Shown here piece by piece: positions 3,094 through 62,797 of a stretch of DNA of 62,855 nt. The notes below the pieces were generated by a model that ran no database searches, had not been told where the DNA came from, and saw nothing but the letters and a program-made list of their open reading frames with translations. Location: the NCBI GenBank assembly GCA_002309575.1, contig DBXP01000012.1:1-62855 (forward strand), in the 5' to 3' direction. Source of the stretch: a bacterium UBP6_UBA1209. GTDB lineage: Bacteria; UBP6; UBA1177. Within the stretch, counting starts at the first letter, position 1; the number at the start of each line of letters is the position of its first letter. Position numbers and translations under genes: made by a program.

Positions 3094-3094
3094 C

Positions 3095-3415
3095 TTATTC
3101 CTCCTTTTTTTCATCGGAATAGACATAATTCTCGCATTCCCATGAGGCAGCCAGAATACGCTCGTTTTCGTTCACGATCTCGGTGTTCATCCTGCGGATC
3201 GTGTTCAGAAACTCGCTGCATTTTTCGGGCGTTACCTGAAGGAAAACAACAGCGTTCGTGCCGGGCCAGACCGATGTGTTCATTCTCGGATTGCCGTTTT
3301 CAAAGGACCCGGCGGTGTTTTCGACGATCTGGAAAGTCTTTATTCCGAGTCCCTTTATCTCCTCTGTCAGCTGTTCGAGTTTGGAGATGTTGCAGCTTAC
3401 ATATATGAATTTCAT
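3095..3415 (-). CDS. Small P-II-like transporter-associated protein (DUF3240 / PG0541-like)
   Basis: This is a 106-aa ORF wedged between the RND pump (ATGA overlap at 3412-3415) and TolC. MKFIYVSCN...GNPRMNTSVWPGTNAVVFLQV matches my recollection of the small P-II-fold proteins found in RND/Czc operons. The assignment is from memory and not HMM-verified. Confidence 0.65.
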   Translation of the reverse strand: MKFIYVSCNISKLEQLTEEIKGLGIKTFQIVENTAGSFENGNPRMNTSVWPGTNAVVFLQVTPEKCSEFLNTIRRMNTEIVNENERILAASWECENYVYSDEKKEE

Positions 3416-6546: not shown

Positions 6547-6554
6547 GGCAGCCC

Positions 6555-20119: not shown

Positions 20120-20129
20120 GAGGTCAAAG

Positions 20130-20795: not shown

Positions 20796-21421
20796 TAAAA
20801 ACTAATATGCGCCTGCTTTTCAGCCTGATTTTGCTGGCAATGCTTGCCGGATGCGCAAACGAATATCAGATCGAACCTTTTGACTTTAAGGCTGAGTACG
20901 ACAAAATCAGCAAGACCAAGACGACCGAAACCAAAACGAAGGAGATCAATATCTCCGATATCGCGCAGAGAAAGTCGAATTACCGCTACTCAGCAGTCGG
21001 AAAGAAGGACCCCTTCAGAAGTTATTTCGGCGATATGGCTGCGATGAACAAAGAAAAAAAGATTGTCAGTGAGCTTCAGAACTTTGATGTTTCCGATTTA
21101 AGGCTCACTGCGATCGTTTGGGGCATTTCCGAGCCGAGAGCCACGATCGTCGCTCCGGACGGAAAGAGCTATATCGTAAAGACGGGAAGTTTTATCGGAA
21201 AAAACTGGGGAAAGATAAGCCGTATTCTTCCCGACAAGATCGAAATTGTTGAAACTTACAAGGATCCGCTCGGCAGAAAGATCATCAACAAGCTTTATCT
21301 GGAGCTTCCGGTCAAGACCAACCTGACGAAGGATGAAGACGATGAAACGGAAAGCGCTGCGGACTTTGAAAGTGAAAACAGCGGTGCAAATAAGAAAAAA
21401 TCGAATAATAACAATAACTAA
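20792..21421 (+). CDS. pilP: Type IV pilus assembly lipoprotein PilP
   Basis: It has a lipobox (LLAMLAGC), a KDPFRSYF motif, and LRLTAIVWG...ATIVAPDGKSYIVKTGSFIG typical of PilP. It has an ATGA overlap with pilO. Confidence 0.7.
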   Translation: MIKTNMRLLFSLILLAMLAGCANEYQIEPFDFKAEYDKISKTKTTETKTKEINISDIAQRKSNYRYSAVGKKDPFRSYFGDMAAMNKEKKIVSELQNFDVSDLRLTAIVWGISEPRATIVAPDGKSYIVKTGSFIGKNWGKISRILPDKIEIVETYKDPLGRKIINKLYLELPVKTNLTKDEDDETESAADFESENSGANKKKSNNNNN

Positions 21422-21436
21422 GCGACGGAGCTCGGA

Positions 21437-38663: not shown

Positions 38664-39764
38664 CTATCTGAATTTGATCGTCATTATAGCAAGTGCCGCC
38701 ATCATTATGCTGATGATCCAGAATCTGGTGACGACCTTTGCCTCGGCAAGGCCTTTATGCTGGAAATGGTGGTGGATGGGAGCTCTATAGAGGATCCTGC
38801 GTTTCAGGAACTTGAAGCCGACGACCTCCTGGACGAAGGTAGAGGTTATCTCGATCACAAAGATCGCTCCGGCGATGATGAAGACGACCTCCTGACGGAT
38901 GAGGACGGCTGCCGTGCCCATCACCCCTCCGAGAAAGAGGCTTCCTGTGTCACCCATGAAGACCTCGGCCGGGTGCGTGTTGAACCAGAGAAAGCCGATC
39001 GCCGCGCCGATAATGGCTCCGCAGAAGACGGTGATCTCTCCGCATCTCGGGATGTATTCGTAGAGCAGGTGCTGGGAATGGACAATGTTTCCGATGATGT
39101 AGGCAAAAGTGCCGAGGACGATGAAGACGCATATCGAGGGGACAGTCGTCAGGCCGTCCATGCCGTCGGCAAAATTAACGGCGTTGGCGGAATAGACGAT
39201 TATGAAAACGATGAATGCCGCTGTAAACGGTGTCGAGTTGAAGAGGATACCCTTGAAAAACGGGATCTGGAACGAGTTCGCGATCTCCGGCGGAAGCGGC
39301 GAAATGTCCGGATTCAGCACAAAAAACGCCAGAAAGAGACCGAAGCCGATCTGAACGGCGAACTTGAAGCTCCTGGAGAGACCGCTGTCCGGGTCGCGGT
39401 ATTTGATTTTGAGAAAGTCGTCGATCGCGCCGAAAAGGGCGAACCAGACCGCTGCTGCTATCAGCACCAGGACAAAGGGGTTGGTGAGGTCGCACCACAT
39501 CAGGACGCTGCCGATCCCCGTGATGAAGATGATGAGTCCGCCCATCATCGGGGTCCCGGTCTTCTTCTGGGAGTTGACTTCGCCGTAGCTGCGTTCAAAG
39601 GAGCGGAGTCCCTTCCGGTAGAGCATGTTTATTATCGGTCTGCCGATCGCCAGCGAGATCATAAAGGCGGTCACGAAGGCTATCAGGGCTCTGGAAGTGA
39701 GGTATTTGAAAACCGCGAAGCCGCGTGCGTTTTCGAAGAGAGAGCTTAAAAGTGTGTAAATCAT
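38664..39764 (-). CDS. mraY: Phospho-N-acetylmuramoyl-pentapeptide transferase
   Basis: NAVNFADGMDGL, FMGDTGSLFLGG and APIHHHF motifs are present in a 366-aa polytopic protein. It has an ATGA overlap with murG. Confidence 0.95.
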   Translation of the reverse strand: MIYTLLSSLFENARGFAVFKYLTSRALIAFVTAFMISLAIGRPIINMLYRKGLRSFERSYGEVNSQKKTGTPMMGGLIIFITGIGSVLMWCDLTNPFVLVLIAAAVWFALFGAIDDFLKIKYRDPDSGLSRSFKFAVQIGFGLFLAFFVLNPDISPLPPEIANSFQIPFFKGILFNSTPFTAAFIVFIIVYSANAVNFADGMDGLTTVPSICVFIVLGTFAYIIGNIVHSQHLLYEYIPRCGEITVFCGAIIGAAIGFLWFNTHPAEVFMGDTGSLFLGGVMGTAAVLIRQEVVFIIAGAIFVIEITSTFVQEVVGFKFLKRRILYRAPIHHHFQHKGLAEAKVVTRFWIISIMMAALAIMTIKFR

Positions 39765-41746
39765 CTGGACTCCGTTGAAATGGCGGTTTTTACGGTTTTG
39801 TAGACCTGCTTCAACTCGTATTCGGTCGTATAGCCGGTGCTTGTGATCAAAATTTTGTCAAGTTCCGTCAGGGCTGTTTCCGGTGTGATCGTTCCGTTTT
39901 CAGAGAGGTGCCGGAGCGCCTTCATGACTGAGATCCTGACTTTCCAGCAGGGGTCGTAGTAGCATCTCTGCAGCATTTTCATGATCACGGAGGAGTCCGA
40001 ATCGATGAACGAGGCGGCAGAGACGGCCTCTGTCCTCACTTCGAAGGCTCTGTCTCTGAAATTTTTGTAAAGTATCTCAAGAAGCCTCCTTTTTTCTTCG
40101 CCGCTGAAGCCGAAACGCTTTTCAAATACGGGTATGCAGCGTTCTGCGTTGAATCTCGTTTCGTAGTAACCGTTTCGGATCCCGAGCAGGACCGCTTCGA
40201 CGATCTCGTCTCTGAATCTCTCTTCGCATCCGGTCATAAGCATACTCAGGGCTTGGAATGCATCGCGGCTGGTGAAGGGTTTGCTTTCAGGATTTTTCGC
40301 AAAACCAAGGACCGAAGGCAAGAGGTCGCAAAATCCCGCGATCCCCGCGATCCTGCACGCTCTGGCGTTGAAGATCGGATTTTTTGAGACAAAGAGGAGC
40401 CTGATTTTTGATTTGATGAGCCTCTCTTCGTCGGGATCAAGGGGCCTTTCCGTTCCGTTGGATACTTTCCGCATGAAGCTTTCGAGAGTCACCGAGTTGA
40501 GTCCTATCAGGCGGTCGTTGAAAAGAAGGGTGCATCCGACAGGTTCAGGTTTCGGAGCCTCTCCGATCATATATTTGATATTGCTGATGATTATCTCTGC
40601 AGGATTGCCTGGGAAGATGTTTTTCGCCTTCTCTGACATCTCCTTCAGGGCATCTGCATCGCCTTTGAGCTCCGAAACCGTCCGGATGAATTCGTTTTTG
40701 TCGGCAAAGGCGATCCCTGTCGGGCTCAGCGCCTCAGGTTCCTCGTAGACCACCCTGGCTGCGCCGAGTTTCCCGATGAATCTTGCGTTCCCGACCTGAT
40801 GATCGTTTGCGAGGTTCGTTATCGGAATGATGACCGAAGGTTTCCCCTGACGGCAGACCTCCATGATCGAGCCGGCGCCTGCACGGATGACCAGAAGGTC
40901 GCTCGCTGCGTAGTAAAGCCCCATGTCGTCGATGAAATCCTTCAGTAAATACCGGTCGTTGTCTGCAAGCCCCTCCTTTTTGAGGATCTCTCTGACATCC
41001 TTGCAGCCGTCGTATCCGCCGGAGCTCCCGAAGGGTTTCCCGGCACCGTTGATGATGAAGATATCGGGATCTTTCAAAAGCTCGGGAGCAGCCTCTGCGA
41101 GCACGCGGTTTATCGTTCTCGACCCCTGTGAGCCTCCGAACGCAAAGATCACGAAGCTCTTTTCAGGGATCCCGAGGGTCTTTCTTGCCTCGGATTTGTC
41201 GTGCCGCGATATCGTGCTTCTGACCGGATAGCCGGAGTAAAAGCTCTTTTCCGCCTTCAGGCTCTTTATCGTTTCAGGGAAGGAGACCGCAATAAAATCA
41301 GCTGCATGAGCCGCCATTTTGTTCATCTTGCCGAGGTCGACGTTCGATTCGTGAAGCAGTATTTTTGTCTTGAAAAGTCCGAAGGAGATCTTTCTCAGGA
41401 TCCATGCCCCGAAGACTGTCGGTGCGCTGACATATCCGCCTGTCGCAAAGACCAGATCAGGCCTGAAGCTGAGCAGGATCCCGATAGCCTTGAGGATCCC
41501 CAGGGTAAGCGTGACTGCGAATTTTGCGAGCTGGACCGGCGATTTCCCGGCAGGCATCGGCGCGCTTTTTACGAGCCTTAGCGGAACTCCCGCCTTCGGG
41601 ACCATCGCGCACTCGGCTTTGCCTGCCATTCCGACGTAAAGGATCTCGGAATCGGGCATTTCGCGTTTAAGTTCGGTGATCACCGCCAGCGCAGGGCTGA
41701 CATGCCCCCCGCTCCCGCCTCCGGTGAAAATAAATCTTTTTCCCAT
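39761..41746 (-). CDS. murG: MurG glycosyltransferase fused to a ~270-aa HEAT-like C-terminal domain
   Basis: The N-terminal ~385 aa are MurG-like (FTGGGSGGHVSPALAV, FGGSQGSRTIN, VIRAGAGSIMEV). The remainder contains HEAT-like helices (RAFEVRTEAVSAASFI, DPCWKVRISVMKALRHL). Typical MurG is about 360 aa. Confidence 0.88.
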   Translation of the reverse strand: MGKRFIFTGGGSGGHVSPALAVITELKREMPDSEILYVGMAGKAECAMVPKAGVPLRLVKSAPMPAGKSPVQLAKFAVTLTLGILKAIGILLSFRPDLVFATGGYVSAPTVFGAWILRKISFGLFKTKILLHESNVDLGKMNKMAAHAADFIAVSFPETIKSLKAEKSFYSGYPVRSTISRHDKSEARKTLGIPEKSFVIFAFGGSQGSRTINRVLAEAAPELLKDPDIFIINGAGKPFGSSGGYDGCKDVREILKKEGLADNDRYLLKDFIDDMGLYYAASDLLVIRAGAGSIMEVCRQGKPSVIIPITNLANDHQVGNARFIGKLGAARVVYEEPEALSPTGIAFADKNEFIRTVSELKGDADALKEMSEKAKNIFPGNPAEIIISNIKYMIGEAPKPEPVGCTLLFNDRLIGLNSVTLESFMRKVSNGTERPLDPDEERLIKSKIRLLFVSKNPIFNARACRIAGIAGFCDLLPSVLGFAKNPESKPFTSRDAFQALSMLMTGCEERFRDEIVEAVLLGIRNGYYETRFNAERCIPVFEKRFGFSGEEKRRLLEILYKNFRDRAFEVRTEAVSAASFIDSDSSVIMKMLQRCYYDPCWKVRISVMKALRHLSENGTITPETALTELDKILITSTGYTTEYELKQVYKTVKTAISTESR

Positions 41747-44090: not shown

Positions 44091-47000
44091 ATGAAAATGA
44101 GAAGATTTTTTCTTGCAGCGTTCGCCGTTTTTGCAGCTCTTCTGCTGGCGGTAGGATGCAGTTCAAAAAAGACCCCCGAAAATCTGCCCGACGGCGATCT
44201 CGATTCGTCGGATCTTGACGCGATCGAAGTTCATGATCCAGACGGTCAGGAGCCTGACGCCGACGAGACCGATGCGGATTCTGCACAGGATGCGGATGCA
44301 GATTCGGAGAATGACGAGGATTCCGTCCATGATCCCGAGGGGATCGTTTCGGGAAGCTATATGATGCCGGATGGCGCCGACGGCAAAAAGGCGGCTCTTT
44401 TCGAGTGCGGAGAGAGCGAAGAGCTTGCTTCGGCTGAGATCAAAAACGGCGGATACGAGCTTAAATACGACCTGGAAGAGGGCAAAAGCTACTGCGTCGA
44501 GGCGAACGGCTACAAGAGCTGCTTCGAGGGCGGAAGCTACAGACACGGCAACATTTCGCCGATGACCCACCTTGTCGCGCTTTCGTCAGATACGTTCTGC
44601 GGTGATCTCCGCGGCTCCGAGACGGCTGTCAGGTCATATCTGAAGGTCGCGACGGGGATCTGGCTCGGCGAACTCGACTATGCAAATTTCGGCCAGATAT
44701 CTTCGGGATTCCAGAAGGTCAAGTCGCTTCTGCCTTCGGATAAGAACTCGACGAAGGAGATCCTTGAGGCAGTAGGCGGAGATATCATGGCGGAGAGTCC
44801 GCTTTACCGCGATTTCTTCAACGGCTTTGAGATCAAGGGCGACAAAAAGGAGATCCACATCACCGGAGAGAGCAGCGAGGAGGATCTGACCGCAAACTTC
44901 GAGGTCGGAGGCGGAAACGCTGTGCTTGCGCCGGGCTTCAAGGTCGTCTGGACAGCAATGAACAAAAATACGGAGGGGCTTAAAAACTCGGTAAAGAGCT
45001 CGACAGCGGGCCAGTTCGCCGTCAGAGCCAGACTTTTCGAGGGCGGAAGCGAAGATACGATGCTGACAGAAGCCTCCGGAACGATACTCTATTTCACCGT
45101 CAAGGAGAGCGGCACGATCGATGTCAGCGATATGTCCAAAAACATCTCGCAGCGCGTGGCGAACGGAATTTACGCGATAATCCCCCACGGCACGGCCATC
45201 ACGAACAACGGCTCGAAGCTCGACACGATCACCTACAAAGTCCTTGCGTCGGGTGACGGAGAGAGCGTCGCCAAGATCGACTTCGGTCCTGACGGGACGA
45301 GCTTCTCCGGCGATTCGATGTACCTTCTTTTCGATGCCGGAACGCTTTACGGCGGCGATGCGACGATGCTTTCAGCCAAGCGCCAGGAGGCCGACGGCTC
45401 GGTCTCGGTGCTCAATTCCGCGATGGGCGACCCGATCATGATGACTACCGGGATGGGCGATCCGATCATGGGCGCAGCGATGGGCGACCCGATCATGGGT
45501 TCCGCGATGGGCGACCCGATCATGGGCGCAGCGATGGGAGACCCGATCATGATGGGTACCTGCTCGAGCGCGGCTATGACCCAGACCCAGCACTATTCGA
45601 GCTTCCTTCTTGACGCGCAGGCTCTTCTCCCGACGGCTGCCGCGATCATCGAAAAGTGGTGCTCGGGCTCATACTATCAGGATTTTACGCCTCTCAGCTT
45701 TGTCGCAGAGGCGATCGAGGCATACAAGGCCGACGGCGGCGAAAAGGATGACCTTCTGTCGTACTTCGAAGACTGCTCGAAGCTTCCGGCTATCGCTTCG
45801 GAGCTTTCGGATCTGCTTCAGAAGAGGGTCGGAAAGAAGTCGAACCTTTCGGTCCTTGAGAACCTTTACTATGTGACCGAGCTGCTCCGCCGCTTCGAGG
45901 GCAGACACTCCCAGAACGGTGCCGCAGCTGTCAGAAACGGCATCGACCTGAGGGCCGCGATAAACGCTCTTTACTCGCAGACCTTCATCTACAACCGTGA
46001 CTCGGCTGTGAACGATCTTTTTGATCCGGCGCTCACTCCGAGAGCCTTCCTCGAGAAGAACTCTTCGAGGATCGCGGATCTCAGCAGCCTTGCGAAGAGC
46101 GCTGTGACCTCGCTTTCGTCCGACAGCTTCAATGCGGGCTATATCGCCGAAAAGAAGAGCGTCCTTGCGCTTATGAACTATATCAGCAACACGCACGGCC
46201 CGGATTTCAGGAATGTTACGAGCCCGCTTACGGCTGACCAGCTGATCTGCGCATGGTTCGAGCCCGAGAACGATCCGGCATCCTGCAGTACGGTCTACAC
46301 GGTCAACGAAAACGGCAGAGTCGCCGGCAACGGCACCGAGGTCGGGATTCTGGCGGCCGAACATATTTTCGAAAAGCATCTCACGATGATGAACACAAGG
46401 CTTTCGGACGACGAGCGTTACGAGCTTTTAAGAACGCTCTATGTCGTTCTGAAGTATGCCGGCACACTCTATGAAAACGCTGACGCGGCTGCCGAGCTGA
46501 AGGGCGGGATCCTCAAGAACGTCGCTCTCATGTTCGACGGCGTGAACCTCAGCGGCAATGCGGTCTCTATCGTAGACGATTTCGATACGTCGAGCCATAC
46601 CGTTGCTGTCAGAGAGGGCGGACAGATCGTCGAAAAGCGTTATGTTTCGGATCTTTCTGAGCTCGCTGAGAGCCTTGCGGTAAGCCTTTCTGATCCGGCA
46701 AATACAGATCTCAACAAGGTCATTTTCTCGATCGAGGGATACGGATACTCAATCGAGGAGGGCGACTCGCGCCCGGTCTACACGCCGGCAGGCGAGCCTT
46801 TGAGCCTTGACGTCGACGTCACTCCGGCTTCGACCGGCTCCGCCGAGGTGATCACGCTTTCGGAGCTTCTCGAGGCATCCGGCAGGAACCTTAACGAGCT
46901 CGGAAATATCGTCGCAAAGGTATCGCTCATCGTAAATTCCGAGGCTGACGGCAAAAAATCGATCGCCCGGAAGAACTTCGAGGTGGTAGTCGACAACGGC

Positions 47001-50000
47001 GAGCATGTCGCGGTCAACACGAAGCCGGCAGGCGCCGATGTCTCTGTCAGGCTCGTCGGCAGCGACGGCAGTCCGATCGAGGCGGATGCCAACCCGGCAC
47101 TTCTTGTCAACCCCGGCAACAAGGTCTTCTACCTCGGCGAGGATGGCCTCCTCTCAGTCAGCGACGTCACTCCGGCGACCTACACGATCACCGGTCAGGC
47201 TGACGGCTACTACACCGCCAGCGTCTCGATCAACGTCTCGGAGGGTTCGGCCCACGACGTCGAGCTCAAGCTTGACCGCGAGGTCACCGGCTCGGGTACG
47301 GCGGATCTGACCATCAACACGCTGATCAACTCGCTCAAGCGCCCGCAGATCGTCTACATCCAGCTCTACAACGACGATATGGAGATGATCGCGAACGCTC
47401 AGGCACAGGTCAACAGCGACGGCGGCTACGCTCCGGTCGTTCTGAACGAGATCGGCTACGGACGCTACACGCTGGCGGCTGTCGGTCAGGAGATGTTCAA
47501 CTATGTTTCGGCTGTCACCGTCTCCGAGGAGGGCGACAACGAATTCGATATGCTCATCGTGGCTGAAAACGCGTGCGGAAACGGCATCGTCGACGGCGGC
47601 GAGGATTGCGATCCGGGCTCAGGAACGACCCAGTCGCTTACATGCGGAGCGCTCTTCCCGAACACTCCGAACAAATCCGCGGCTGTCTCCTGCGACCCGG
47701 TAAGCTGCGTCTACGACAAGTCAGGCTGCGGCAAGGAGCCTCTCTGCGGCGACGGCATCCTGGATGCGGGCGAAACCTGCGACGGCGGTACCAAAAACTG
47801 CAGCGACGTCATGGGCGAGATAGGTTTGAGCGGCAACGCGGCCTGCAAGTCCGACTGTTCCGGCTGGAACACCGAAAGCTGCGCAAAACAGGCGACATGC
47901 ACGGTCCCGGAACTTCCGGACCACGCTATGCCGATCGTTGTCGAGGAGACTCTTACACGCAACGGCGAAAGCTGGTCCGAACCGTCACTCTGCGAATGGC
48001 AGTGCCAGAACGGCTTCGAGAAGGTCGATGAAGAGTGCCTCTGCCCGGACGGCCAGCACGATGACGGAGACGGCTGCGTTTCAAATACCGGCGAAGCTCT
48101 CGAGTGCGAAAACCTTCCCGAGAACGCACACTGGACAAACGGGACCTACACGCCTGTCTGGAATGACGGATGGACGACGGCTCCTGATCCGGTCTACGAC
48201 GAAGCGGGTGCTTCTGCCTGCTCGTTTGCCTGCGGATCGGGCAGCCACTACGACGGTTCTCTCTGCGTTTCCGATAACGGCGGCACTCAATCCTGCGGAA
48301 CGCTTCCGGCGAACGCGGAGTGGGTAAACGGCGAGACCTACGAATCTGTCTGGGACGGTACGGCGTACACGACCGCATCGGCTCACTACGCAGAAGAGGG
48401 CGACTGCGCCTTCATCTGCAAACCGACATTCACCTGGTCGGAAGACAACGCTGGCTGCGTATGTCCTGAGGATGAGCATCCCGAAAACGGAAGCTGCGTA
48501 TCCGATACCGGCGACGCGCAGAACTGCGAAAACCTTCCGGCTAACGCAGAGTGGGTTATCTCGACCTACACGCCTCACTGGGCAAACAGTGCATGGTCGA
48601 ACGAACCGGCTGCGACATATACTGAAAACGGCGGCGACGAGTGCACCTACGACTGCGCGGACAACTTCCACTTCGACGGAAACAACTGCGCGTCGGATAA
48701 CGGCGGCACCGTCTCATGCGGAACGCTTCCGGCAAACGCGGCGTGGGTAGACGGCGACACCTACGAGTCAGTCTGGGACGGATCGGCATACACGAGCGCA
48801 TCGGCTCACTACGCAGAGGAGGGTGACTGCGCATTCCTGTGCAATGCGACCTACGAATGGATCGACGGCGCCTGCACCTGCGGAAGCGGCAAGCACGTCG
48901 AGGGCGGCCTCTGCACCTCCGACACGCAGGCTGCGGCAAGCTGCGGAACACTCCCCGACAACGCTGAATGGGTAGGCGACGGGACCTACATCCCGACCTG
49001 GAACGGTACCGGCTACTCAACGGCTGAACCGACCTATTCGGATTCCGGCGAGTGCGCTTTCCAGTGCAGACCTACCTTCACCTGGAACAATAACAACAGG
49101 AGCTGCGGTTGCCTGAGCAGCCAGCATGTGAACGAGGGTTCATGCGTCTCCAATACAGGAGAAACTCAGAACTGCGAAAACCTTCCGGCTAACGCAGAGT
49201 GGGTTATCTCGACCTACACGCCTCACTGGACTAACAGCGCATGGTCGACCGAACCGGCTGCGACATATACTGAAAACGGCGGCAGCGAGTGCACTTTCGG
49301 GTGCGTTGAGAACTTCCACTTCGACGGGAACAACTGTACGTCTAATAACGGCGGCACCGTCTCCTGCGGAACGCTTCCGTCGAATGCATACTGGGTAAAC
49401 GGCGAGACATACGAATCCGTCTGGAACGGTTCGGCATACTCGAGCGCATCGGCTCACTACGCCGAAGAGGGCGACTGCGCATTCCTGTGCAATGCGACCT
49501 ACGAATGGACCGGAACTCTCTGCGACTGCGCGGATGGGACACACGTCGAAGAGGGCGTCTGCACATCCGACACACAGGCTGCGGCAAGCTGCGGAACGCT
49601 TCCCGACAACACGGAATGGGTAGGCGACGGAACATACATCCCGACCTGGAACGGTACAGGTTACTCGACTGCATCGGCTCATTACGCCGAAGATGGCGAC
49701 TGCGCATACAAGTGCCTTGCGACATACACATGGACGGGCTCGGGGTGCAACTGCACGGATGCACAGCACGTCGAAAACGGCAGCTGCGTTTCAAATACAC
49801 AGGCTGCTGCAAGCTGCGGAACACTTCCGGACCATGCGGCATGGGTGAACGGCTCGACCTACATCCCGACCTGGGACGGCAGCGAATATTCGAGCGCATC
49901 GGCTCACTACGCCGAAGACGGCGACTGCGCCTTCAAGTGCGATGAAACCTTCGAATGGATCGACGAATCCTGCACCTGCGGAAGCGACATGCACATCGAG

Positions 50001-52343
50001 GGCGGCGTCTGCACCTCCGACACGCAGGCTGCGACAAGCTGCGGTACGCTTCCCGACAACGCTGAATGGGTAGGCGACGGAACATACATCCCGACCTGGA
50101 ACGGTACAGGCTACTCAACGGCTGAACCGACCTATTCGGATTCCGGCGAGTGCGCTTTCCAGTGCAAACCCACCTTTATGTGGAACAACAACAGCAGGAG
50201 CTGCAGGTGCCCGAGCAGCCAGCACATCGAAGAGGATTCCTGCGTCTCCAATACAGGAGAAGCTCAGAACTGCACGGCGCTTCCGGCGAACGCGATCTGG
50301 GTAAATTCGACCTACACGCCTCACTGGGCAAACAGCGCATGGTCGACCGAACCTGAGGCGGAATATTTCGAAAACGGCGGTAGCGAGTGCACTTTCGAGT
50401 GCGTGGCGAACTTCCATTACGAGGGTTCAAGCTGCCAGTCCGACTCCAAGCCCGCTCAGTCCTGCGGAACGCTTCCCGACAACGCGGAGTGGCTGTTCGG
50501 AAGTACCTACATCCCGGTATGGACCGGCGAAGGTTACACATCCGCTTCACCGACATATCTCGAGAGTAGCCCCGAGGTCGTTGACTGCGCATTCCGCTGC
50601 AAATCGACATACAGCTGGATCGATTCGAACTGCACCTGCACGGGCGACCAGCACGTCGAAGGCGGTCTCTGCACATCCAACACAGGTGAAGCGCAGAACT
50701 GCGCAAACCTTCCGGCTAACGCTTCTTGGGTAGCTTCGACCTACACTCCGGTCTGGAACGGCAGCGCATGGACGTCAGAACCTGCTGCGACATACTTCGA
50801 GAATCAGAGCAACGAGTGCACCTACGAGTGCGTCACGGATTACCACTACGAGGAGGAGAGCTGCCAGTCCGACACGAAACCGCCGGAGTCCTGCGGCGAA
50901 CTTCCGGATAACGCTTCGTGGGTGAACGGTTCGACCTACATCCCGACCTGGAACGGCAAGGGATATCCGTACCTTACGGCTCATTACGCGGAAGAGGGCG
51001 ACTGCGCATTCAAGTGCGTCGACGAGTTCGTATGGAACCTTGATACTGTCTCGTGCGAACCTGAACCGCGCTGCGGCGACGGTATACTCAACGGCGATGA
51101 AGAGTGCGACGACGGTGATGGACAGAACGGCGAATACGGTTTCTGCAAACTCGATTGCAGCGAGTGCACCGACGATGAATTCCACATCGAAAACGGTCAC
51201 TGCCTTTCGAATGCAGGAAGGCAAACCGAGTGCGAGGGCGAGCTTCCGCAATACTCCCGCTGGATAAACAACACCTATTACAGTTACTGGATAACTACCG
51301 GCAATTTAGGCAGCGGCGACGGGTACTGGTACACGCCTGAACTCACCTACAGCTATGAAGACGAGTATGCAGAGTGCTCCTTCAGATGCCTTGACGGCTT
51401 CGAGTGGAACGAAGAGGATGAGGTATGCGAATGTCCTGAAGAGAGACCGCTCAACACCAGCGATCCGGAAAACCCGTACTGCGAGCTTGTCGGACAAAAT
51501 GTCACAGCGTGCTCTCCGAAACCTGAAAATACTGTCTGGACAGACAACGGGCAGCAGGGCATGTATATTCTCGAAATGACAGGAGTGCCCACGACGCATT
51601 ACAGCTACGGCGAGATCTGCGACTGCTGCTATTCATGCGCCGAGGGCTTCCACTATCTCGACGATCAGGGCGTATGCGAATCCGACACCCGTGATCCTGA
51701 GCCCTGCCCGGACCTGCCGGATAACGCCGTGTGGGTAGGAAGCGGCTACTACACGCCAGTCTGGACCGGTGAGATCTGGACTATGCCGAACGCGGTCTAT
51801 GACGAATCCGGCGAATCCGACTGCTCCTTCAGATGCCCGGAATACTACGAATGGAGCTATGCTTCCGGAATGTGCGGACTCTCCATCCCCGAGTGCAGCC
51901 AGTCGAGCGGCACCCCGTGCCACGATACGACAAACAAGATAACATGGTCTCCGCTGTCGGCCGGGACCATGGATTGGGATAGCGCGGTCTCGTACTGCGA
52001 CAACCTTGACATGATCGGCTATACCGACTGGCGTTTGCCGACGATCGACGAACTCAGGACGCTTGTCCGGAGCTGCAGGAACACTCAGACAGACGGCGCC
52101 TGCGCGATATCCGATCCGAACGCTCTGGCATACGGCAACTATGTCGCCAACGACTGCCAGTGCGAACTCGTGGAGAGCAACGAAGGTCTCTACAGCATAT
52201 TCGGCGACGACGACACCGTCACTCTCTGGTCATCTTCCGAGTACACGAGTGTCGCCGATTTTGCATGGTATCTGGATTTCGCCAATGCCGGCATCAGCAG
52301 CCACAGTATGGGCGGCAGCTACAATGTCCGTTGTGCAAGGTAA
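44091..52343 (+). CDS. Giant (2750 aa) modular Cys-rich surface lipoprotein with DUF1566-like C-terminus
   Basis: It is a single uninterrupted ORF. It has a lipobox (ALLLAVGCSS) and an acidic linker. About 1100 aa are unassigned and include MGDPIM repeats. A CarboxypepD_reg-like segment lies around 47040-47275. There are three CG[ND]GI..G.E.CD repeats. About 17 modules of 63-77 aa start with C-x2-LP-x-NA-x-W. The C-terminus is WRLPTIDELRTL...NVRCAR. The true start may be the second ATG at 44097, which has better spacing from GGAG. Confidence 0.85.
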   Translation: MKMRRFFLAAFAVFAALLLAVGCSSKKTPENLPDGDLDSSDLDAIEVHDPDGQEPDADETDADSAQDADADSENDEDSVHDPEGIVSGSYMMPDGADGKKAALFECGESEELASAEIKNGGYELKYDLEEGKSYCVEANGYKSCFEGGSYRHGNISPMTHLVALSSDTFCGDLRGSETAVRSYLKVATGIWLGELDYANFGQISSGFQKVKSLLPSDKNSTKEILEAVGGDIMAESPLYRDFFNGFEIKGDKKEIHITGESSEEDLTANFEVGGGNAVLAPGFKVVWTAMNKNTEGLKNSVKSSTAGQFAVRARLFEGGSEDTMLTEASGTILYFTVKESGTIDVSDMSKNISQRVANGIYAIIPHGTAITNNGSKLDTITYKVLASGDGESVAKIDFGPDGTSFSGDSMYLLFDAGTLYGGDATMLSAKRQEADGSVSVLNSAMGDPIMMTTGMGDPIMGAAMGDPIMGSAMGDPIMGAAMGDPIMMGTCSSAAMTQTQHYSSFLLDAQALLPTAAAIIEKWCSGSYYQDFTPLSFVAEAIEAYKADGGEKDDLLSYFEDCSKLPAIASELSDLLQKRVGKKSNLSVLENLYYVTELLRRFEGRHSQNGAAAVRNGIDLRAAINALYSQTFIYNRDSAVNDLFDPALTPRAFLEKNSSRIADLSSLAKSAVTSLSSDSFNAGYIAEKKSVLALMNYISNTHGPDFRNVTSPLTADQLICAWFEPENDPASCSTVYTVNENGRVAGNGTEVGILAAEHIFEKHLTMMNTRLSDDERYELLRTLYVVLKYAGTLYENADAAAELKGGILKNVALMFDGVNLSGNAVSIVDDFDTSSHTVAVREGGQIVEKRYVSDLSELAESLAVSLSDPANTDLNKVIFSIEGYGYSIEEGDSRPVYTPAGEPLSLDVDVTPASTGSAEVITLSELLEASGRNLNELGNIVAKVSLIVNSEADGKKSIARKNFEVVVDNGEHVAVNTKPAGADVSVRLVGSDGSPIEADANPALLVNPGNKVFYLGEDGLLSVSDVTPATYTITGQADGYYTASVSINVSEGSAHDVELKLDREVTGSGTADLTINTLINSLKRPQIVYIQLYNDDMEMIANAQAQVNSDGGYAPVVLNEIGYGRYTLAAVGQEMFNYVSAVTVSEEGDNEFDMLIVAENACGNGIVDGGEDCDPGSGTTQSLTCGALFPNTPNKSAAVSCDPVSCVYDKSGCGKEPLCGDGILDAGETCDGGTKNCSDVMGEIGLSGNAACKSDCSGWNTESCAKQATCTVPELPDHAMPIVVEETLTRNGESWSEPSLCEWQCQNGFEKVDEECLCPDGQHDDGDGCVSNTGEALECENLPENAHWTNGTYTPVWNDGWTTAPDPVYDEAGASACSFACGSGSHYDGSLCVSDNGGTQSCGTLPANAEWVNGETYESVWDGTAYTTASAHYAEEGDCAFICKPTFTWSEDNAGCVCPEDEHPENGSCVSDTGDAQNCENLPANAEWVISTYTPHWANSAWSNEPAATYTENGGDECTYDCADNFHFDGNNCASDNGGTVSCGTLPANAAWVDGDTYESVWDGSAYTSASAHYAEEGDCAFLCNATYEWIDGACTCGSGKHVEGGLCTSDTQAAASCGTLPDNAEWVGDGTYIPTWNGTGYSTAEPTYSDSGECAFQCRPTFTWNNNNRSCGCLSSQHVNEGSCVSNTGETQNCENLPANAEWVISTYTPHWTNSAWSTEPAATYTENGGSECTFGCVENFHFDGNNCTSNNGGTVSCGTLPSNAYWVNGETYESVWNGSAYSSASAHYAEEGDCAFLCNATYEWTGTLCDCADGTHVEEGVCTSDTQAAASCGTLPDNTEWVGDGTYIPTWNGTGYSTASAHYAEDGDCAYKCLATYTWTGSGCNCTDAQHVENGSCVSNTQAAASCGTLPDHAAWVNGSTYIPTWDGSEYSSASAHYAEDGDCAFKCDETFEWIDESCTCGSDMHIEGGVCTSDTQAATSCGTLPDNAEWVGDGTYIPTWNGTGYSTAEPTYSDSGECAFQCKPTFMWNNNSRSCRCPSSQHIEEDSCVSNTGEAQNCTALPANAIWVNSTYTPHWANSAWSTEPEAEYFENGGSECTFECVANFHYEGSSCQSDSKPAQSCGTLPDNAEWLFGSTYIPVWTGEGYTSASPTYLESSPEVVDCAFRCKSTYSWIDSNCTCTGDQHVEGGLCTSNTGEAQNCANLPANASWVASTYTPVWNGSAWTSEPAATYFENQSNECTYECVTDYHYEEESCQSDTKPPESCGELPDNASWVNGSTYIPTWNGKGYPYLTAHYAEEGDCAFKCVDEFVWNLDTVSCEPEPRCGDGILNGDEECDDGDGQNGEYGFCKLDCSECTDDEFHIENGHCLSNAGRQTECEGELPQYSRWINNTYYSYWITTGNLGSGDGYWYTPELTYSYEDEYAECSFRCLDGFEWNEEDEVCECPEERPLNTSDPENPYCELVGQNVTACSPKPENTVWTDNGQQGMYILEMTGVPTTHYSYGEICDCCYSCAEGFHYLDDQGVCESDTRDPEPCPDLPDNAVWVGSGYYTPVWTGEIWTMPNAVYDESGESDCSFRCPEYYEWSYASGMCGLSIPECSQSSGTPCHDTTNKITWSPLSAGTMDWDSAVSYCDNLDMIGYTDWRLPTIDELRTLVRSCRNTQTDGACAISDPNALAYGNYVANDCQCELVESNEGLYSIFGDDDTVTLWSSSEYTSVADFAWYLDFANAGISSHSMGGSYNVRCAR
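45420..45553 (+). repeat. Tandem 27-bp-period repeat encoding (A/G)MGDPIMG(A/S) x5
   Basis: Read directly: AMGDPIMMTTG MGDPIMGAA MGDPIMGSA MGDPIMGAA MGDPIMMGT. The DNA copies of atgggcgacccgatcatgg are near-identical. Confidence 0.9.
48105..51890 (+). repeat. Array of about 17 in-frame 63-77-aa Cys-containing modules (C-x2-LP-x-NA-x-W ... Y-x-E-x-G-x-C-x-F-x-C)
   Basis: I counted the modules by eye from the translated ORF: CENLPENAHW, CGTLPANAEW, CENLPANAEW, CGTLPANAAW, CGTLPDNAEW and so on through CPDLPDNAVW. The boundaries are approximate. Confidence 0.8.
48522..49817 (+). repeat. Higher-order tandem duplication, 648-bp period (three modules per unit)
   Basis: The string aactgcgaaaaccttccggctaacgcagagtgggttatctcgacctacacgcctcactgg occurs at 48522 and again at 49170. 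Flanking sequence stays highly similar for several hundred bp. A further near-identical block, about 48900-49175, matches about 49998-50273 (offset 1098 bp). Confidence 0.8.
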
Positions 52344-59600: not shown

Positions 59601-59744
59601 TCGCAATTTATCTCCGACCACTGGAGTTTCTTTGCGCCGGTCTTTGATGAGGCTAGGCTGATAAAGACCTGCGGCTACTCAAAGAAACTGGCTGAAATTG
59701 TTAAAGTCTTGGTTGTTGGTAAGAAAACGAAAAAGAAAAAATGA
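56637..59744 (+). CDS. recC: Exodeoxyribonuclease V gamma subunit (RecC)-like protein
   Basis: The N-terminus (LFVHYGLRADSFVDPVIRIF...VVISQNQSIAKWISLAVAEKKGVCASVQHFLPEVY) parallels E. coli RecC. RVTFCSIRSLSMIPFKTIFLIGMSAEAFPRED and NDDLFMFLKALMTARESLVISYVGKS match conserved RecC blocks. The protein is 1035 aa. Confidence 0.88.
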   Translation: MALFVHYGLRADSFVDPVIRIFEKIERDNPLAKKVVISQNQSIAKWISLAVAEKKGVCASVQHFLPEVYLKKFAAERLGIDTEGSVFEKRRLVWAVYGVLDAISSGSDPDLASIRGYMADSALKPFQLAGKVAYLFDQYCAYRPDLIESWKRGVPFDPSDRDEIWQFKLFRMLLERYPDSLTKYDFYKLFALRCQEKRGKFNSGERVILLDVSLDEYLFPLYQSLSGLVDVYIFSFYPSSEMLDRDSLNPVLNRFCRGERYFFEQTCGLFGNDLDAVPEGETRLSLLQQSVFHDEVSFPECKADGSFKIKACWSKMREVEELKSELVRLFRSDPALSPEDVAVAAPDISEYAAELEAQFAGFDEIPLSLPLLRGSGVCETFTRLLDICGSNFERTRVLEIFGNPSVLQRFGVKPESCRDLFELIGSSGVKWGIDEAHRERTGCAEVFQNTWKMGMNRLFASCVMPLTDNLDDFDGAIPVGDLTGEKAEDFAKFSLFFKALAELDALCSRPRPISDWQKILQQSVVDTFFGEDDTSSRELKLVRESVAGLASGEGIAPERIPFEAVRDCLKRGLKRAQAYSPAVTGRVTFCSIRSLSMIPFKTIFLIGMSAEAFPREDRRLAFDLTRKGKQSLRSLRNDDLFMFLKALMTARESLVISYVGKSQNNFSGGGSFLPVSSAVSELCEYMTGRPSSLSELASVMPMNSWSFLPQGAGDHIEAHFEEKRYESETAEVSLDDLASFFKDPAKWYLTKRAGIVLPKFDEPEDDDEMFDFDHLAKWKFTDDYLHELSEEEILRRARLTGKIPFGEYGSGQIRGELVGLTGLLEAAEAVRSWGASEPLYFDRTFDVGGRKLRLYGRIDSIYENGLLYITASKCKSLKHKFKPLIYAYALGYEKGDWRLAVVSPDASTDGVPGVVLESSDCPDYKSHLRAMLEIYCDALDELPFFSPKTVEMAGNKNINIDDDKLERAVYEYVSAGSDGGQFDFSSEYSQFISDHWSFFAPVFDEARLIKTCGYSKKLAEIVKVLVVGKKTKKKK

Positions 59745-62700
59745 GCGATATAAAAAGCAATAGCGGAAATTTCCGGCCGGCGCTCGATACGGGGTCGGTC
59801 ATTGTTCCGGCTTCTTCCGAGCCCACCGAGGGCGTCGAACGGTCGAAAAGCCGTGTGACTCCCGAGACTCCCGGGCGCTACACGCCGAAGGTGGAGTGGG
59901 GAAGAGGCGGCGCAGGCAGAGTCATGATCGTCGCCGACAAGCACACGGGGCGCGAGATCGCGATGAAGGAGCTGCTTGTCGATCTGCAGAAAAAGCCGCA
60001 CGGAGACGTGCTCTCAGATGTTATCCGGAACCGGTTCCTGCGCGAAGCCAGAATCACGGCCCAGCTGGAGCACCCCTCGATCGTTCCGGTCTACGAGATT
60101 GGCTGCCACGAAGACGGCGCCTTTTACTACACGATGCGGTTCGTGAAGGGCAAAACGATGTCCAAGGCTCTCAAAGGCTGCGCCACGCTTGAGCAGAGGC
60201 TCGAGCTGATGCCGCACTTCATCGACGTCTGCAACGCCGTGGCTTACGCTCACAGCAAGGGGGTGATCAACCGTGACCTGAAGCCGTCTAACGTCATGCT
60301 CGGAGAGTTCGGAGAGACGGTCGTCCTTGACTGGGGACTTGCCAAGCTCAAGAGCGAAAACGAGATGATCGTTTCGCGCAGCGGCGACGGCGATGTCGGA
60401 CACACGGTCGTCGGTCACGCGATCGGGACACCCGCCTACATGTCGCCGGAACAGGCTCAGGGTAAGATCGGTGATATCGACGAGGCTTCGGATGTCTATT
60501 CGCTGGGCGCGATGCTCTATCAGATCCTGACGGGAGCTACGCCCTTCAACGGCCGGTCGGCGGAGGATATCATCCAGCAGGTGCTTTTTGTCGTCCCGCA
60601 GAATCCCTGCGAGATCGATCCCCAGATCCCGCCTGAGCTTGCGGCTGTCGCCATGAAGGCGCTTTCAAAATCGAAGGATGACCGCTACCGTTCGGCGACA
60701 GAGTTCCGCGAGGATCTCAAGACATACCTGACCGGCGGCAAGGTCAGCGCCTACCGCTATTCGACATTCGAGGATCTGAGACGTTTCGCGTCGGCCCACA
60801 AGACGATCGTTTTTTCGTCGATAGTCTCGCTTTTGGTTGTCCTTGTCGCTGCGGTCGCGATCGCAGTTGCCTTCCGCCAGGAGGTCAAGGCGCTCGAGGA
60901 GGCGCAGGACGCACGCTATTCCGCGCAGTACCGAATGGCGCAGGCCTACAACGAAAAGGCGAACAAACTTGATGCCGAAAAGAGCTACATCACTTCGCGG
61001 GTCTACGCTGCGGCTTCGATGTACTACAACCCGGCAAACCCGAACAGCCCCGAATACGACGAGGATTTCCGCTTTCAGAACCCGGCAGCCGATACGATGC
61101 TTTCGGATGCGATCTCAAAGTTCTTCGTCATGAATTTTCACCGCGGAGCCGTCATCAAAAGCGGCAAGAGGTTCAACTGCCGTATCGTCCGCGCCGCCTT
61201 TTCCGCTGATGAATCGATGTTGGCGCTCGGCTGCGAAAATGGAGAGCTCATATTTGTCAACTACCGCAATCTTCAGGAGATCTCGCGCTTCAAGATGGAG
61301 AGCCAGGTCTCGGATATCCGCATAGACGATTCAAAGCAGCTCTGCTACGTTATGGATACCGCTAACCGCAGCTGCGTTATCAATTACGAAAAGAATATGA
61401 TCGAATCCTGCGGAAACTTCAGTCTCGACGAGCAGAACAGCGAAGTCGACCTCAAAAACAGCCTCAACTACAAAACTGAAAACGAAATCGTCGAGATCGC
61501 CGGCCCGCCTGACGGTTCGATCATCCTTGCCGGGACGAAAAACGGCGAGATCCTGGTCTTTTCCGGCAAAAGCAGGGAGGTCTTGCGGACGCTGGCGTTC
61601 CAGAACAGCCGGATAACATCGATCGATTTTTCGACGGACGGGACGCTCTTCGCCGCTTCGGAGCAGGCGGGGCGCACGGTCGTCTGGGACACGAAGCTTA
61701 TGGAGCCGCTTTTTGCGCTGGAGGGGCACGAGGACGAGGTCACAAGCGTATTTTTCGCGAGCGGCGACCACGATATCGTCACCACCGGACGTGACGGCCT
61801 GCTCCGCGTCTGGACAAGAAAGGCGAAACCCAGCTTTGAACGCTACACCTTCGGTCAGCAGGCGCTGAAAAGGATCTCTGTCGCGGAGAACCGTTCGGTC
61901 GCCGGACTTTCGGCAGACAACTCGGTGGTTGTCCTGAATGCCGCGAAAAAGGAGATCTTCCGTATCCAGCCGCAGGTCCCGGTGCTCGATATCAGGCTCT
62001 CGCGGAACGGCGAGACGCTTGCTGCGCTGGAGTCCGGGGCATCTGTCAGGATCTTTGATGTCAAAACTGGAAACCAGAAGAACCTCTTTGCTTCTGACAA
62101 GGAGTCGATCCTCTCTTTTGACGTCGCCAGAAACGGGCAGGTCGCAGTCTTTTCCGAAAATGACGGCAGCGTAAAGCTTGTTTCTGATACGAATCCGGTC
62201 GGCGCGACCTATCTCTGCCAGTCCGAGTCGGCCGGGAAGGTAGCATTTGCGCCGGACGGCAAATCCGTGGTCGCGGTCTGCGACAAAAGGCAGATCGTCC
62301 ACCTCTCGATCCCGGAGCTCTCGCTGCTCAGCAGCAGGGATTTTGAAAACAGGACGATCGAAACCTTCGCCTTCTCACACGATTCGAAAGGGGTATTTGC
62401 CGGCTTTGCCGACGGAACGCTTTCCTACATCAGCCTCAGCGACTTTTCGGAAACCGTCGTCAAGGGACAGTTCGATGCAGCCGGCGAGTTCAGTGTCTCC
62501 TACGACAGCAGATTTGTCGCTTCGACGACCGGAAAGGACACCATAAAGATCTGGAACGTCGACCTCCGCAAGCTCTTTTATTCGGTATCTGTCGGAACGG
62601 AGGCCCCCTGCCTCTCCTTCATGCCTGACGGAAATTTTGTCGGCATCTGTTCGGGAGCGGCTCTGACCCTCTATCCGCTGGATACTTCAAATTTCAACTT

Positions 62701-62797
62701 CAACTCGCTGAAACTGCTCAGGCAGATGGAAAGCGAATCCGGAATGAGGCTCCGCGACTTCTATCTTGAGGTCAAGGAAGAGGATCTGGAGAAATAA
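59741..62797 (+). CDS. Ser/Thr protein kinase - single TM - WD40-like beta-propeller protein
   Basis: The kinase motifs are GRGGAGRV, IAMKEL, VINRDLKPSNVML, DWGLAK and GTPAYMSPEQ. The TM is IVFSSIVSLLVVLVAAVAIAVAF at about 60805-60873. The ~620-aa C-terminal region has WD40-like blades (GHEDEVTSVFFASGDHDIVTTGRDGLLRVWT, TGKDTIKIWN). It has an ATGA overlap with recC. Confidence 0.9.
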   Translation: MSDIKSNSGNFRPALDTGSVIVPASSEPTEGVERSKSRVTPETPGRYTPKVEWGRGGAGRVMIVADKHTGREIAMKELLVDLQKKPHGDVLSDVIRNRFLREARITAQLEHPSIVPVYEIGCHEDGAFYYTMRFVKGKTMSKALKGCATLEQRLELMPHFIDVCNAVAYAHSKGVINRDLKPSNVMLGEFGETVVLDWGLAKLKSENEMIVSRSGDGDVGHTVVGHAIGTPAYMSPEQAQGKIGDIDEASDVYSLGAMLYQILTGATPFNGRSAEDIIQQVLFVVPQNPCEIDPQIPPELAAVAMKALSKSKDDRYRSATEFREDLKTYLTGGKVSAYRYSTFEDLRRFASAHKTIVFSSIVSLLVVLVAAVAIAVAFRQEVKALEEAQDARYSAQYRMAQAYNEKANKLDAEKSYITSRVYAAASMYYNPANPNSPEYDEDFRFQNPAADTMLSDAISKFFVMNFHRGAVIKSGKRFNCRIVRAAFSADESMLALGCENGELIFVNYRNLQEISRFKMESQVSDIRIDDSKQLCYVMDTANRSCVINYEKNMIESCGNFSLDEQNSEVDLKNSLNYKTENEIVEIAGPPDGSIILAGTKNGEILVFSGKSREVLRTLAFQNSRITSIDFSTDGTLFAASEQAGRTVVWDTKLMEPLFALEGHEDEVTSVFFASGDHDIVTTGRDGLLRVWTRKAKPSFERYTFGQQALKRISVAENRSVAGLSADNSVVVLNAAKKEIFRIQPQVPVLDIRLSRNGETLAALESGASVRIFDVKTGNQKNLFASDKESILSFDVARNGQVAVFSENDGSVKLVSDTNPVGATYLCQSESAGKVAFAPDGKSVVAVCDKRQIVHLSIPELSLLSSRDFENRTIETFAFSHDSKGVFAGFADGTLSYISLSDFSETVVKGQFDAAGEFSVSYDSRFVASTTGKDTIKIWNVDLRKLFYSVSVGTEAPCLSFMPDGNFVGICSGAALTLYPLDTSNFNFNSLKLLRQMESESGMRLRDFYLEVKEEDLEK

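Follow-up and report, generated by a model that had tools for sequence, protein, structure and literature searches.

A giant lipoprotein of a UBP6-lineage bacterium with the layout of a stalk adhesin and a predicted ZU5-like self-cleaving cassette near its lipid anchor

The 62,855-nucleotide contig DBXP01000012.1 of bacterium UBP6_UBA1209 (assembly GCA_002309575.1), the whole of which is the window analyzed here, encodes a protein of 2750 amino acids (aa) in a single ATG-to-stop open reading frame (ORF; 44091..52343, +). We think it somewhat better than an even chance, with a probability of roughly 55%, that this giant protein is a lipid-anchored stalk adhesin that probably processes itself at a self-cleaving latch and can be shed. 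The order of its parts is a lipid-anchor sequence, an acidic tether, a conserved base of ~1100 aa, four beta-sandwiches, 18 cysteine-rich modules and one Lcl_C head. The putative latch lies in the base, where a beta domain is followed by a disordered GDPIM repeat array and by a conserved H-Y-S turn resembling the autoproteolytic site of ZU5-superfamily domains.

The G+C content of the ORF (0.55-0.59) is similar to that of the surrounding DNA, and the ORF is not a chance reading frame, because at least 49 homologues of 1744-4364 aa are encoded in other assemblies. A previous interpretation made without database searches (the sequence-only reading) had proposed a real giant ORF with the order lipobox, tether, MGDPIM repeats, beta-sandwich, Cys repeats, modules and DUF1566; the homologues bear out the first claim, and the order was largely correct. 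The 49 homologous giants are annotated as 'DUF1566 domain-containing'. Three are close, two of these having 99% identity with the window protein over aa 81-1160, and the other giants exhibit ~40% identity over aa 1 to ~1300, followed by 1-18 modules and up to at least six Lcl_C domains, so that the order of N-terminal base, modules and Lcl_C is common to the family. The stretch from aa 1 to ~1300, ~40% identical in 45 relatives, is the most conserved part of the protein family. What had been described as about 1100 aa without a recognized motif is instead a conserved family core containing the ZU5-like cassette.

The lipid anchor is predicted from a signal peptide and lipobox (aa 1-23, ...LLAVG/C23; 44091..44159, +) read directly from the sequence, MKMRRFFLAAFAVFAALLLAVG, with the cut before C23. 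The lipobox Cys is at least 90% conserved over 42 aligned homologues, with the consensus ...xxxCGGxKK, and the shorter paralogues start with the same Cys-Gly/Ser. The lipobox had already been noticed in the sequence-only reading, and with a signal peptide ending in a lipobox Cys conserved to this degree, the protein would be a bacterial lipoprotein lipidated at that residue. The acidic low-complexity tether that had also been noticed then (aa 24-85; 44160..44345, +) was confirmed by a residue count, having 24 D+E against 2 K+R in 62 aa and a pI of 4.05.

The prediction of autoprocessing comes from the region that follows. The N-terminal part of the protein was modeled with AlphaFold2 (AF2; model m766dc6e0d6a4, 1080 aa, in which model residue i is aa i+80), with a predicted local distance difference test score (pLDDT) of 73. 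From this model and an alignment of the paralogues, one or more beta domains with a ZU5-like core at ~aa 335-425 occupy 44841..45410 (+); they are all-beta, with a pLDDT of ~75-84. Next come five tandem x3-GDPIM repeats (aa 445-488; 45423..45554, +), located by Tandem Repeats Finder and by motif positions; at the DNA level the repeat has a period of 27, 4.8 copies and 83% matches. These five units are the Met-rich MGDPIM repeats that the sequence-only reading had picked out. The array is predicted to be disordered (pLDDT <50 at model residues 337-413), and in relatives the Met/Pro-rich repeats are present in 3-12 copies, most commonly 7. Directly beyond lies a beta-hairpin with the motif H501-Y-S503-x-F505 (45570..45614, +), defined by an alignment of 42 homologues and by the AF2 model. 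H501, S503 and F505 are invariant among the 42 aligned sequences, and the AF2 strands of aa 494-499 and 504-508 flank the H-Y-S, which sits in the turn between them. The bond between Y502 and S503 is the candidate autoproteolytic site.

The same arrangement recurs throughout the lineage. The 78 related loci contain 95 distinct GDPIM arrays, and 85 of these have H[FY][ST] within the next ~30 aa, in the form of HFT (45), HFS (29) or HYS (11), so that the nucleophile position is only ever S or T; the ten arrays without the motif are internal mini-arrays, contig ends or frameshifts. Short paralogous lipoproteins encoded in the same genomes (P0049, P0059-P0065) consist of a lipobox, a Pfam ZU5 domain, ~7 x3-GDPIM repeats, MMTTGHF[S/T] and a variable passenger. 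The Pfam ZU5 model matches all six short paralogues in alignment A4 (best E 1.2e-9), and a profile search brought in 80 further cassette-bearing clusters, nearly all with a precomputed ZU5 match. The giant family shares with these short proteins the cassette order of beta domain, GDPIM array and H501-Y-S503-S-F505, and a BLASTP comparison of the giant with P0049, repeats included, gives an E of 1e-14. The link from the giant to ZU5 is transitive, through the short paralogues. The conservation of H-[FY]-[ST] and its position after the cassette are therefore read as a ZU5-superfamily autoproteolysis signature, and the region of aa ~250-520 probably holds a ZU5-like autoprocessing cassette for which self-cleavage is predicted. 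Several shorter cassette lipoproteins per genome are evident in the related loci L035-L078 (e.g. L041:6001-9635 and L054:6001-9568; proteins P0059-P0065 and P0230-P0306), and their passengers include Cys-rich regions, DUF1566 and PF19789.

Two groups of characterized autopeptidases provide the comparison. PIDD cleaves at HF/S directly after each ZU5 domain and the fragments remain associated (PMC3210808), and in bacteria, ZU5 autopeptidases were noted by Zhang et al. near the N-terminus of large surface proteins (PMC3482391). The H501-Y-S503 motif of the giant is likewise of the H-F-S/T type, right after the domain and in a turn between strands, and the giant resembles PIDD, Nup98, the FIIND of NLRP1 and CARD8, and bacterial ZU5 proteins in having a beta-sandwich followed by an H-[F/Y]-[S/T] loop between strands. 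It resembles the bacterial ZU5 domains of surface proteins and polymorphic toxins in the placement of the domain near the N-terminus of a very large secreted protein. It differs from the ZU5 autopeptidases in that its own copy has diverged beyond the reach of the Pfam model, in the disordered GDPIM array of 3-12 copies inserted just before the motif, and in that its cassette follows directly on a lipobox and is not accompanied by RHS, SpvB or toxin domains. The second group is the bacterial GAIN-like MAIN domains (Brogan and Rudner, bioRxiv 2026), which have been shown experimentally to cleave between the F and S of HFS and for which a force-dependent release of anchored adhesion or enzyme domains has been proposed (bioRxiv 10.64898/2026.05.12.724683). 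The giant and the MAIN proteins both place an HFS-type beta-turn between an envelope anchor and large adhesion passengers, the giant exhibiting the HX(S/T) turn. The polarity is inverted: the MAIN order is signal peptide, passengers, MAIN and C-terminal wall anchor, whereas the giant has an N-terminal lipid anchor, the cassette and then the passenger. The helical domain of the giant lies after the beta domain and motif, in contrast to the helical subdomain A of MAIN/GAIN, which precedes the beta subdomain B.

Several observations weigh against autoproteolysis of the giant itself. The Pfam ZU5 model (PF00791) does not match the giant at E<=1, either as the whole protein or as excised segments, and hhalign of its pre-repeat region against the ZU5-positive paralogues gives a P of 3.6e-4 at a probability of 35-37%. 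A search of the cassette profile against PDB sequences found nothing. The Foldseek result for the 1080-aa model is dominated by generic tandem beta-sandwiches, with no ZU5 or GAIN match seen among the top 50 matches of a list without query coordinates. The giant has Tyr in the motif where the canonical residue is Phe, and many eukaryotic ZU5 domains are non-cleaving. It may be, then, that the same stalk adhesin is left uncleaved, its ZU5-like domain and H-Y-S hairpin having a structural role only, like those ZU5 domains that do not cleave, ankyrin's among them, and its fibre remaining covalently tied to the lipid anchor; the missing direct ZU5 match, the HYS in place of HFS and the weak profile-profile support are all in its favor. 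We nevertheless consider permanent anchoring the poorer explanation, and a fairly improbable one, because paralogues with an identity of only ~30-40% all keep the H, the S/T and the +2 aromatic residue, and because a motif that follows 85 of 95 arrays with a nucleophile that is only S or T is a pattern predicted by catalysis and not by packing alone. The cleavable latch is therefore the reading that we carry forward.

The rest of the base has fewer recognizable parts. Between the tether and the cassette, the AF2 model contains a beta-sandwich and then a helical bundle (aa 86-250; 44346..44840, +), with strands at model residues 5-66, helices at 77-152 and a pLDDT of 72-89; a Pfam scan of the excised segment gave no match. 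Directly after the H-Y-S motif is an alpha-helical domain of ~310 aa (aa 511-820; 45621..46550, +; helices at model residues 436-735), which is kept across the family with many near-invariant alignment columns and has no match in Pfam or among PDB sequences. From the AF2 strands, about four tandem beta-sandwich domains then follow (aa 821-1160; 46551..47570, +), one of which (aa 1015-1063) is a PEGA/CarboxypepD_reg-like sandwich. The CarboxypepD_reg-like assignment in the sequence-only reading was right as to fold, the excised segment scoring 24.4 bits against the PEGA cut-off of 20.8, but the CarboxypepD_reg model itself remains sub-threshold (19-25 bits against 32.3; E 2.2e-5 on the excised segment). 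Foldseek of the 1080-aa model finds the transthyretin-like domain of carboxypeptidase D/N (3mn8_B and 2nsm; probability 1.00, root-mean-square deviation 2.2-2.9 Å over ~85 columns), the best carboxypeptidase D match having a deviation of 2.2 Å over 84 columns, so that by both hidden Markov model (HMM) and fold this is a transthyretin-like beta-sandwich. The same model also matches the TIE protein (E 6e-12) and pilins.

Cysteine dominates the remainder of the protein: of 130 Cys residues in total, 120 are C-terminal of aa 1150. Two CGxGIxDxGExCD repeats of the DUF4215/TIGR02232 type with Cys-rich linkers (aa 1161-1263; 47571..47879, +) were located by their motifs and by DUF4215, which covers them in two stretches below its cut-off (E 8e-4). 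A third CGDG repeat (aa 2323-2370; 51057..51200, +) is detected by TIGR02232 at aa 2326-2347, with 20.0 bits against a cut-off of 20.8, and by DUF4215 at aa 2308-2352 (E 0.0055). The motif CG[DN]GI.D.GE.CD therefore occurs three times, as had been claimed, but the matches to the Myxococcus-type families stay below their cut-offs, the DUF4215 scores for the three repeats being 17-20 bits (17.4-20.1) against 27.

The stalk consists mainly of the Cys-rich modules, of which there are fifteen in tandem (aa 1264-2322; 47880..51056, +; alignment A1, hmmsearch 45-104 bits per module) and, beyond the third CGDG repeat that separates the two sets, three more divergent ones (aa 2371-2594; 51201..51872, +; 59-81 bits). 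The sequence-only reading described about 17 modules of 63-77 aa with 4-6 Cys; its core motif and Cys counts hold, and the figures become 18 modules, one of them of 93 aa and the others of 63-79 aa. The short type is 63-65 aa long with 4 Cys and the long type 75-79 aa with 6 Cys, the extra pair sitting in a C-x-C...H...G tail. The positions C1, C11, P15, C48 and C52 are invariant, and L14, W20 and Y42 are near-invariant. AF2 modeling of aa 1455-1625, with 45 module pairs of the family as its basis, gave a confident all-beta structure (pLDDT 90) with chains of short antiparallel strands. Judging from the Cys positions, the short modules would pair C11-C52 and C48-C1' (1-3, 2-4), and the long modules may have an EGF-like third disulfide.

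The module was earlier said to be unassignable to any named domain, and the searches agree. Scanned one by one against Pfam at E<=10, the 18 modules gave only marginal EGF-type noise and no Sushi, carbohydrate-binding module (CBM) or lectin match, and an NCBIfam scan gave no module match. Foldseek of the module model, a two-and-a-half-module rod that is a poor query, produced no significant match in PDB (TNFR1 came first at an E of 0.04, factor H/CCP reached 0.26) or in BFVD (best E 0.09 for adenovirus fibres). Sushi/CCP and EGF modules are nonetheless the closest comparison; like those of the giant, they are small all-beta beads of ~60-75 aa that are stapled by disulfides and repeated in tandem over long stretches. 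The C-terminal half of the module (Y..E..C.F.C..Y.W....C) aligns with the CCP hairpin 'Y.C..GY.L.G...C', and by our own reading of the alignment the long-module C-x-C...H...C tail fits the EGF C4-C5-C6 spacing. The Cys spacing of C-10-C-36-C-3-C differs from that of Sushi/CCP, and the N-terminal half, C..LP.NA.W...TW, has no Sushi or EGF counterpart. The module profile detects factor H among PDB sequences at an E of 7e-7, a value summed over weak stretches each with an i-Evalue >7, and in a library of 1.84 billion proteins, the matches limited to profile positions 36-72 are eukaryotic Sushi proteins. An hhalign comparison of 855 modules with 109 Sushi domains reached a probability of 33% over only 39 columns and was rejected as evidence of membership. 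A Sushi domain would call for an HMM match (PF00084), four Cys with I-III/II-IV spacing and a conserved Trp between Cys III and IV; no module matches the HMM, and the Cys spacing is different. For EGF-like domains, FXa_inhibition reaches an E of 0.013 in 4 of the 18 modules, far below its cut-off, and only the long-module tail fits the spacing. We treat the C-terminal half as a Sushi/EGF-like hairpin on the basis of a weak, partial resemblance and file the module under neither family. A profile match to HIV gp41 is a chance C..VPWNASW string and was not taken as membership.

The module is rare without being confined to the giants. A threshold of E<=1e-3 yields 497 module-bearing representative proteins and one of E<=1e-10 yields 215, a single protein having as many as 42 copies, and all of the named clusters that were looked up are 'hypothetical protein [bacterium]' from unclassified metagenome-assembled genomes (MAGs). 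The search for homologous arrays in public MAGs that the sequence-only reading had recommended thus shows the module, in ~497 representatives, to be unmodeled as supposed but not unique. A far larger array, of 42 stretches of the same module, is found in P0066 (4790 aa); P0088 (5685 aa) embeds the module in an even larger protein, and P0075 combines it with SBBP beta-propeller repeats. Matches to DUF5874, DUF6087 and MBG_3 in other module-bearing proteins were set aside as whole-protein sums without a passing stretch, and none of these matches the giant.

The wide distribution of the module, often in proteins without Lcl_C, raises the alternative that the modules are themselves functional multivalent binders of carbohydrate or protein, CBM- or Sushi-like, and not a passive spacer, so that the protein would act along its whole length on plant cell-wall, protozoal or microbial glycans. 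This would be compatible with a lipid-anchored, releasable stalk, and it finds some encouragement in the conserved aromatic residues (W20, Y42 and the W/Y at the 'TW.G..W' positions) and in the weak resemblance of the C-terminal half to CCP binding modules (the summed factor H value and the Sushi proteins of the profile search). However, the aromatics of a disulfide domain of 65 aa probably make up its core, there is no match to any CBM or lectin model, and the number of modules varies freely between near-identical orthologues, as expected for spacers. We regard binding by the modules as improbable.

The variation in module number has its own significance. Of the two near-identical orthologues (99% over aa 81-1160), one has 17 modules and the other 15; both (P0001 and P0002) lack a three-module long-short-long block (aa 1608-1823; window 48912-49559), and P0001 additionally has a duplicated long-short module pair. 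Stalk repeats typically show such whole-module differences in copy number between orthologues with 99% identity, which supports the stalk interpretation. They are also what a collapsed, expanded or chimeric assembly of the module array might produce, in which case the length and repeat count of the protein would be an artefact, and the block differences could be either real copy-number polymorphism or assembly differences. An artefact seems quite unlikely to us. The differences fall in whole, in-frame blocks and every version is an intact ORF; over 160-300 nt, the DNA of the module copies in the window has an identity of only 60-87%, and therefore collapse in assembly is not obviously expected; and the plan is the same in more distant homologues, which reach 4364 aa. 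An artefact would affect only the count and not the existence or nature of the protein. The exact module count is uncertain, and the existence of the protein is not in doubt.

At the C-terminus, the Lcl_C domain (DUF1566, PF07603; aa 2611-2750, with the stop codon 51921..52343, +) was identified by HMM at an E of 2.2e-17 and 63.8 bits against a cut-off of 34.9, which bears out the DUF1566-like C-terminal domain proposed before; it contains a DWRLP motif. This is the sole Pfam family over its curated cut-off in the whole-protein scan. The whole protein finds only noise among PDB sequences. A polymorphic toxin or enzyme was rejected, since Pfam and NCBIfam scans detect no toxin, RHS or hydrolase domain, and an IS3 transposase match in the NCBIfam scan is noise (15.8 bits against a cut-off of 160).

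For stalk and head together, the nearest functional analogue is the Legionella pneumophila Lcl protein, an anchor-stalk-DUF1566 'lollipop' adhesin with a C-type-lectin-like head and a repeat number that is variable between strains (PMC11162425). The giant resembles Lcl in its membrane-associating N-terminus, strain-variable repeat stalk and C-terminal DUF1566 head. The stalk is composed of disulfide-rich beta modules in the giant but a collagen triple helix in Lcl; the anchor is a lipobox rather than an amphipathic helix; and paralogues of the giant carry up to at least six Lcl_C copies, unlike Lcl. The trimeric Lcl head has a basic top and no disulfides, and binds sulphated glycosaminoglycans (PMC11162425). 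The head of the giant is acidic and Cys-rich (pI 4.05, 7 K+R against 21 D+E, 9 Cys) and does not have such a basic surface; therefore the glycosaminoglycan-binding mode does not transfer and the ligand is not predicted by Lcl, which tells against a strict Lcl-type function. The lectin-like character proposed for the terminal domain accordingly holds for the fold (PMC11162425) but not for the basic binding surface. The lipobox, the long repeat stalk and the terminal DUF1566 head, much as in Lcl (PMC11162425), fit an adhesin-like surface fibre. An adhesin or a prey- or host-binding fibre had been suggested before; the adhesin-like part agrees with these features, and the binding of prey or host is pure inference.

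Taken together, the parts suggest how the giant might work. The lipidated N-terminal Cys would hold the protein on the membrane, followed by the acidic tether, and the ZU5-like beta domain in the ~1100-aa base would carry the H-Y-S in its last hairpin. The four beta-sandwiches and 18 disulfide-stapled beta modules would form a long, stiff rod with the single C-type-lectin-like Lcl_C head at its tip. Ser503 would attack the Tyr502-Ser503 peptide bond, as in PIDD/Nup98-type ZU5 and bacterial MAIN/GAIN domains, yielding a lipidated fragment of ~500 aa and a passenger of ~2250 aa joined only through the hydrogen bonds of a shared beta-sheet. The tip, and possibly the modules too, would bind a ligand on another surface, and under load the latch could part and release the stalk.

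Two further points sit uneasily with a surface stalk of this kind. The rumen is strongly reducing, an awkward setting for ~60 disulfides, and no surface-export signal or partner gene for the giant lipoprotein is recognizable at the locus. The latter, together with a diderm host in which the default fate of a lipoprotein is the periplasm, would fit an envelope protein of the periplasm or inner leaflet that serves as a structural spacer or scaffold and is never surface-exposed. Yet surface fibres are marked by just such features as a length of 2750 aa, rod-like repeats, a lectin-like domain at the end and a repeat number that varies between strains, and the diversity of passengers among the many paralogues recalls a repertoire of surface proteins; a purely periplasmic life for the giant is very unlikely in our judgment, and exposure at the surface on a releasable stalk is the location that we favor.

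We can also extend the argument to the whole lineage, on more doubtful ground. In this broader scheme, the combination of lipobox, ZU5, (GDPIM)n and H[F/Y][S/T] might be an undescribed, lineage-wide release latch by which UBP6-like rumen bacteria hang many passengers on the membrane, with at least three giants and at least four shorter proteins per genome, a polarity opposite to that of MAIN/GAIN and the disordered Met/Pro GDPIM array as a spring or tuning element, and the Cys module of 65-77 aa might be a new fold family rather than a diverged Sushi or EGF domain. Taken as a whole, this is a tentative proposal that we would not yet bet on.

The best explanation for the host is an uncultured diderm of the rumen or gut, of a UBP6/UBA1177-like lineage. 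Among GTDB species genomes, the family is present in MAGs labeled 'bacterium' from the rumen and gut of yak, buffalo, goat, reindeer, red deer and cattle, and also in 'bacterium UBP6_UBA1177' and some MAGs labeled 'uncultured Spirochaetales', with several giant paralogues per genome; a distant member (~30% identity) is encoded by a Candidatus Sumerlaeota MAG. Rumen MAGs of UBP6/UBA1177 have been reported (PMC7820578). The window encodes TolC-like OEP, AcrB, HlyD and a secretin, and the organism is therefore a diderm. These genes belong to a resistance-nodulation-division efflux operon (TolC-like OEP/AcrB/HlyD) and a PilM-to-secretin (PilQ-like) cluster, at 1708-7607 (-) and 18429-23800 (+), which point to an outer membrane and to a type IV pilus or a machine like that of type II secretion.

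The neighbors of the giant gene are housekeeping genes (GT4/MraY-like, MurG-like, UvrD, LeuD-like, MalQ and RecC). Only locus L004 shares the upstream GT4/MurG-like genes and the other 14 full-length loci share no neighbors, therefore there is no operon partner, a further point that lends the proposed surface function no help. The MurG-like glycosyltransferase (39761-41746, -; GT28 N- and C-terminal domains) has 661 aa, ~300 aa over the usual length, and its C-terminal extension has a weak HEAT-repeat match. Directly downstream of the RecC-like gene is a fusion of a Ser/Thr protein kinase and a WD40 beta-propeller of 1018 aa (59741-62797, +). At the other end of the window, a leucine-rich-repeat protein of 364 aa (135-1229, +) is encoded in the only markedly low-GC stretch (0.39 over 1-2000 against ~0.52), and its gene may have been horizontally acquired.

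Giant repeat adhesins with lectin-like tips are already known; what is new here is a repeat module that is found in ~500 clusters and lies outside all curated libraries. The more useful result is the anchor-proximal cassette, which ties a whole paralogous lipoprotein repertoire to autoproteolysis of the ZU5/GAIN type. If the cleavage is real, it would extend anchored but shed-able display to diderm lipoproteins, with the opposite polarity and in a candidate phylum without cultured members. It would also provide a specific signature for rumen metaproteomics, and would justify two new domain models, one for the Cys module and one for the GDPIM-HxS cassette.

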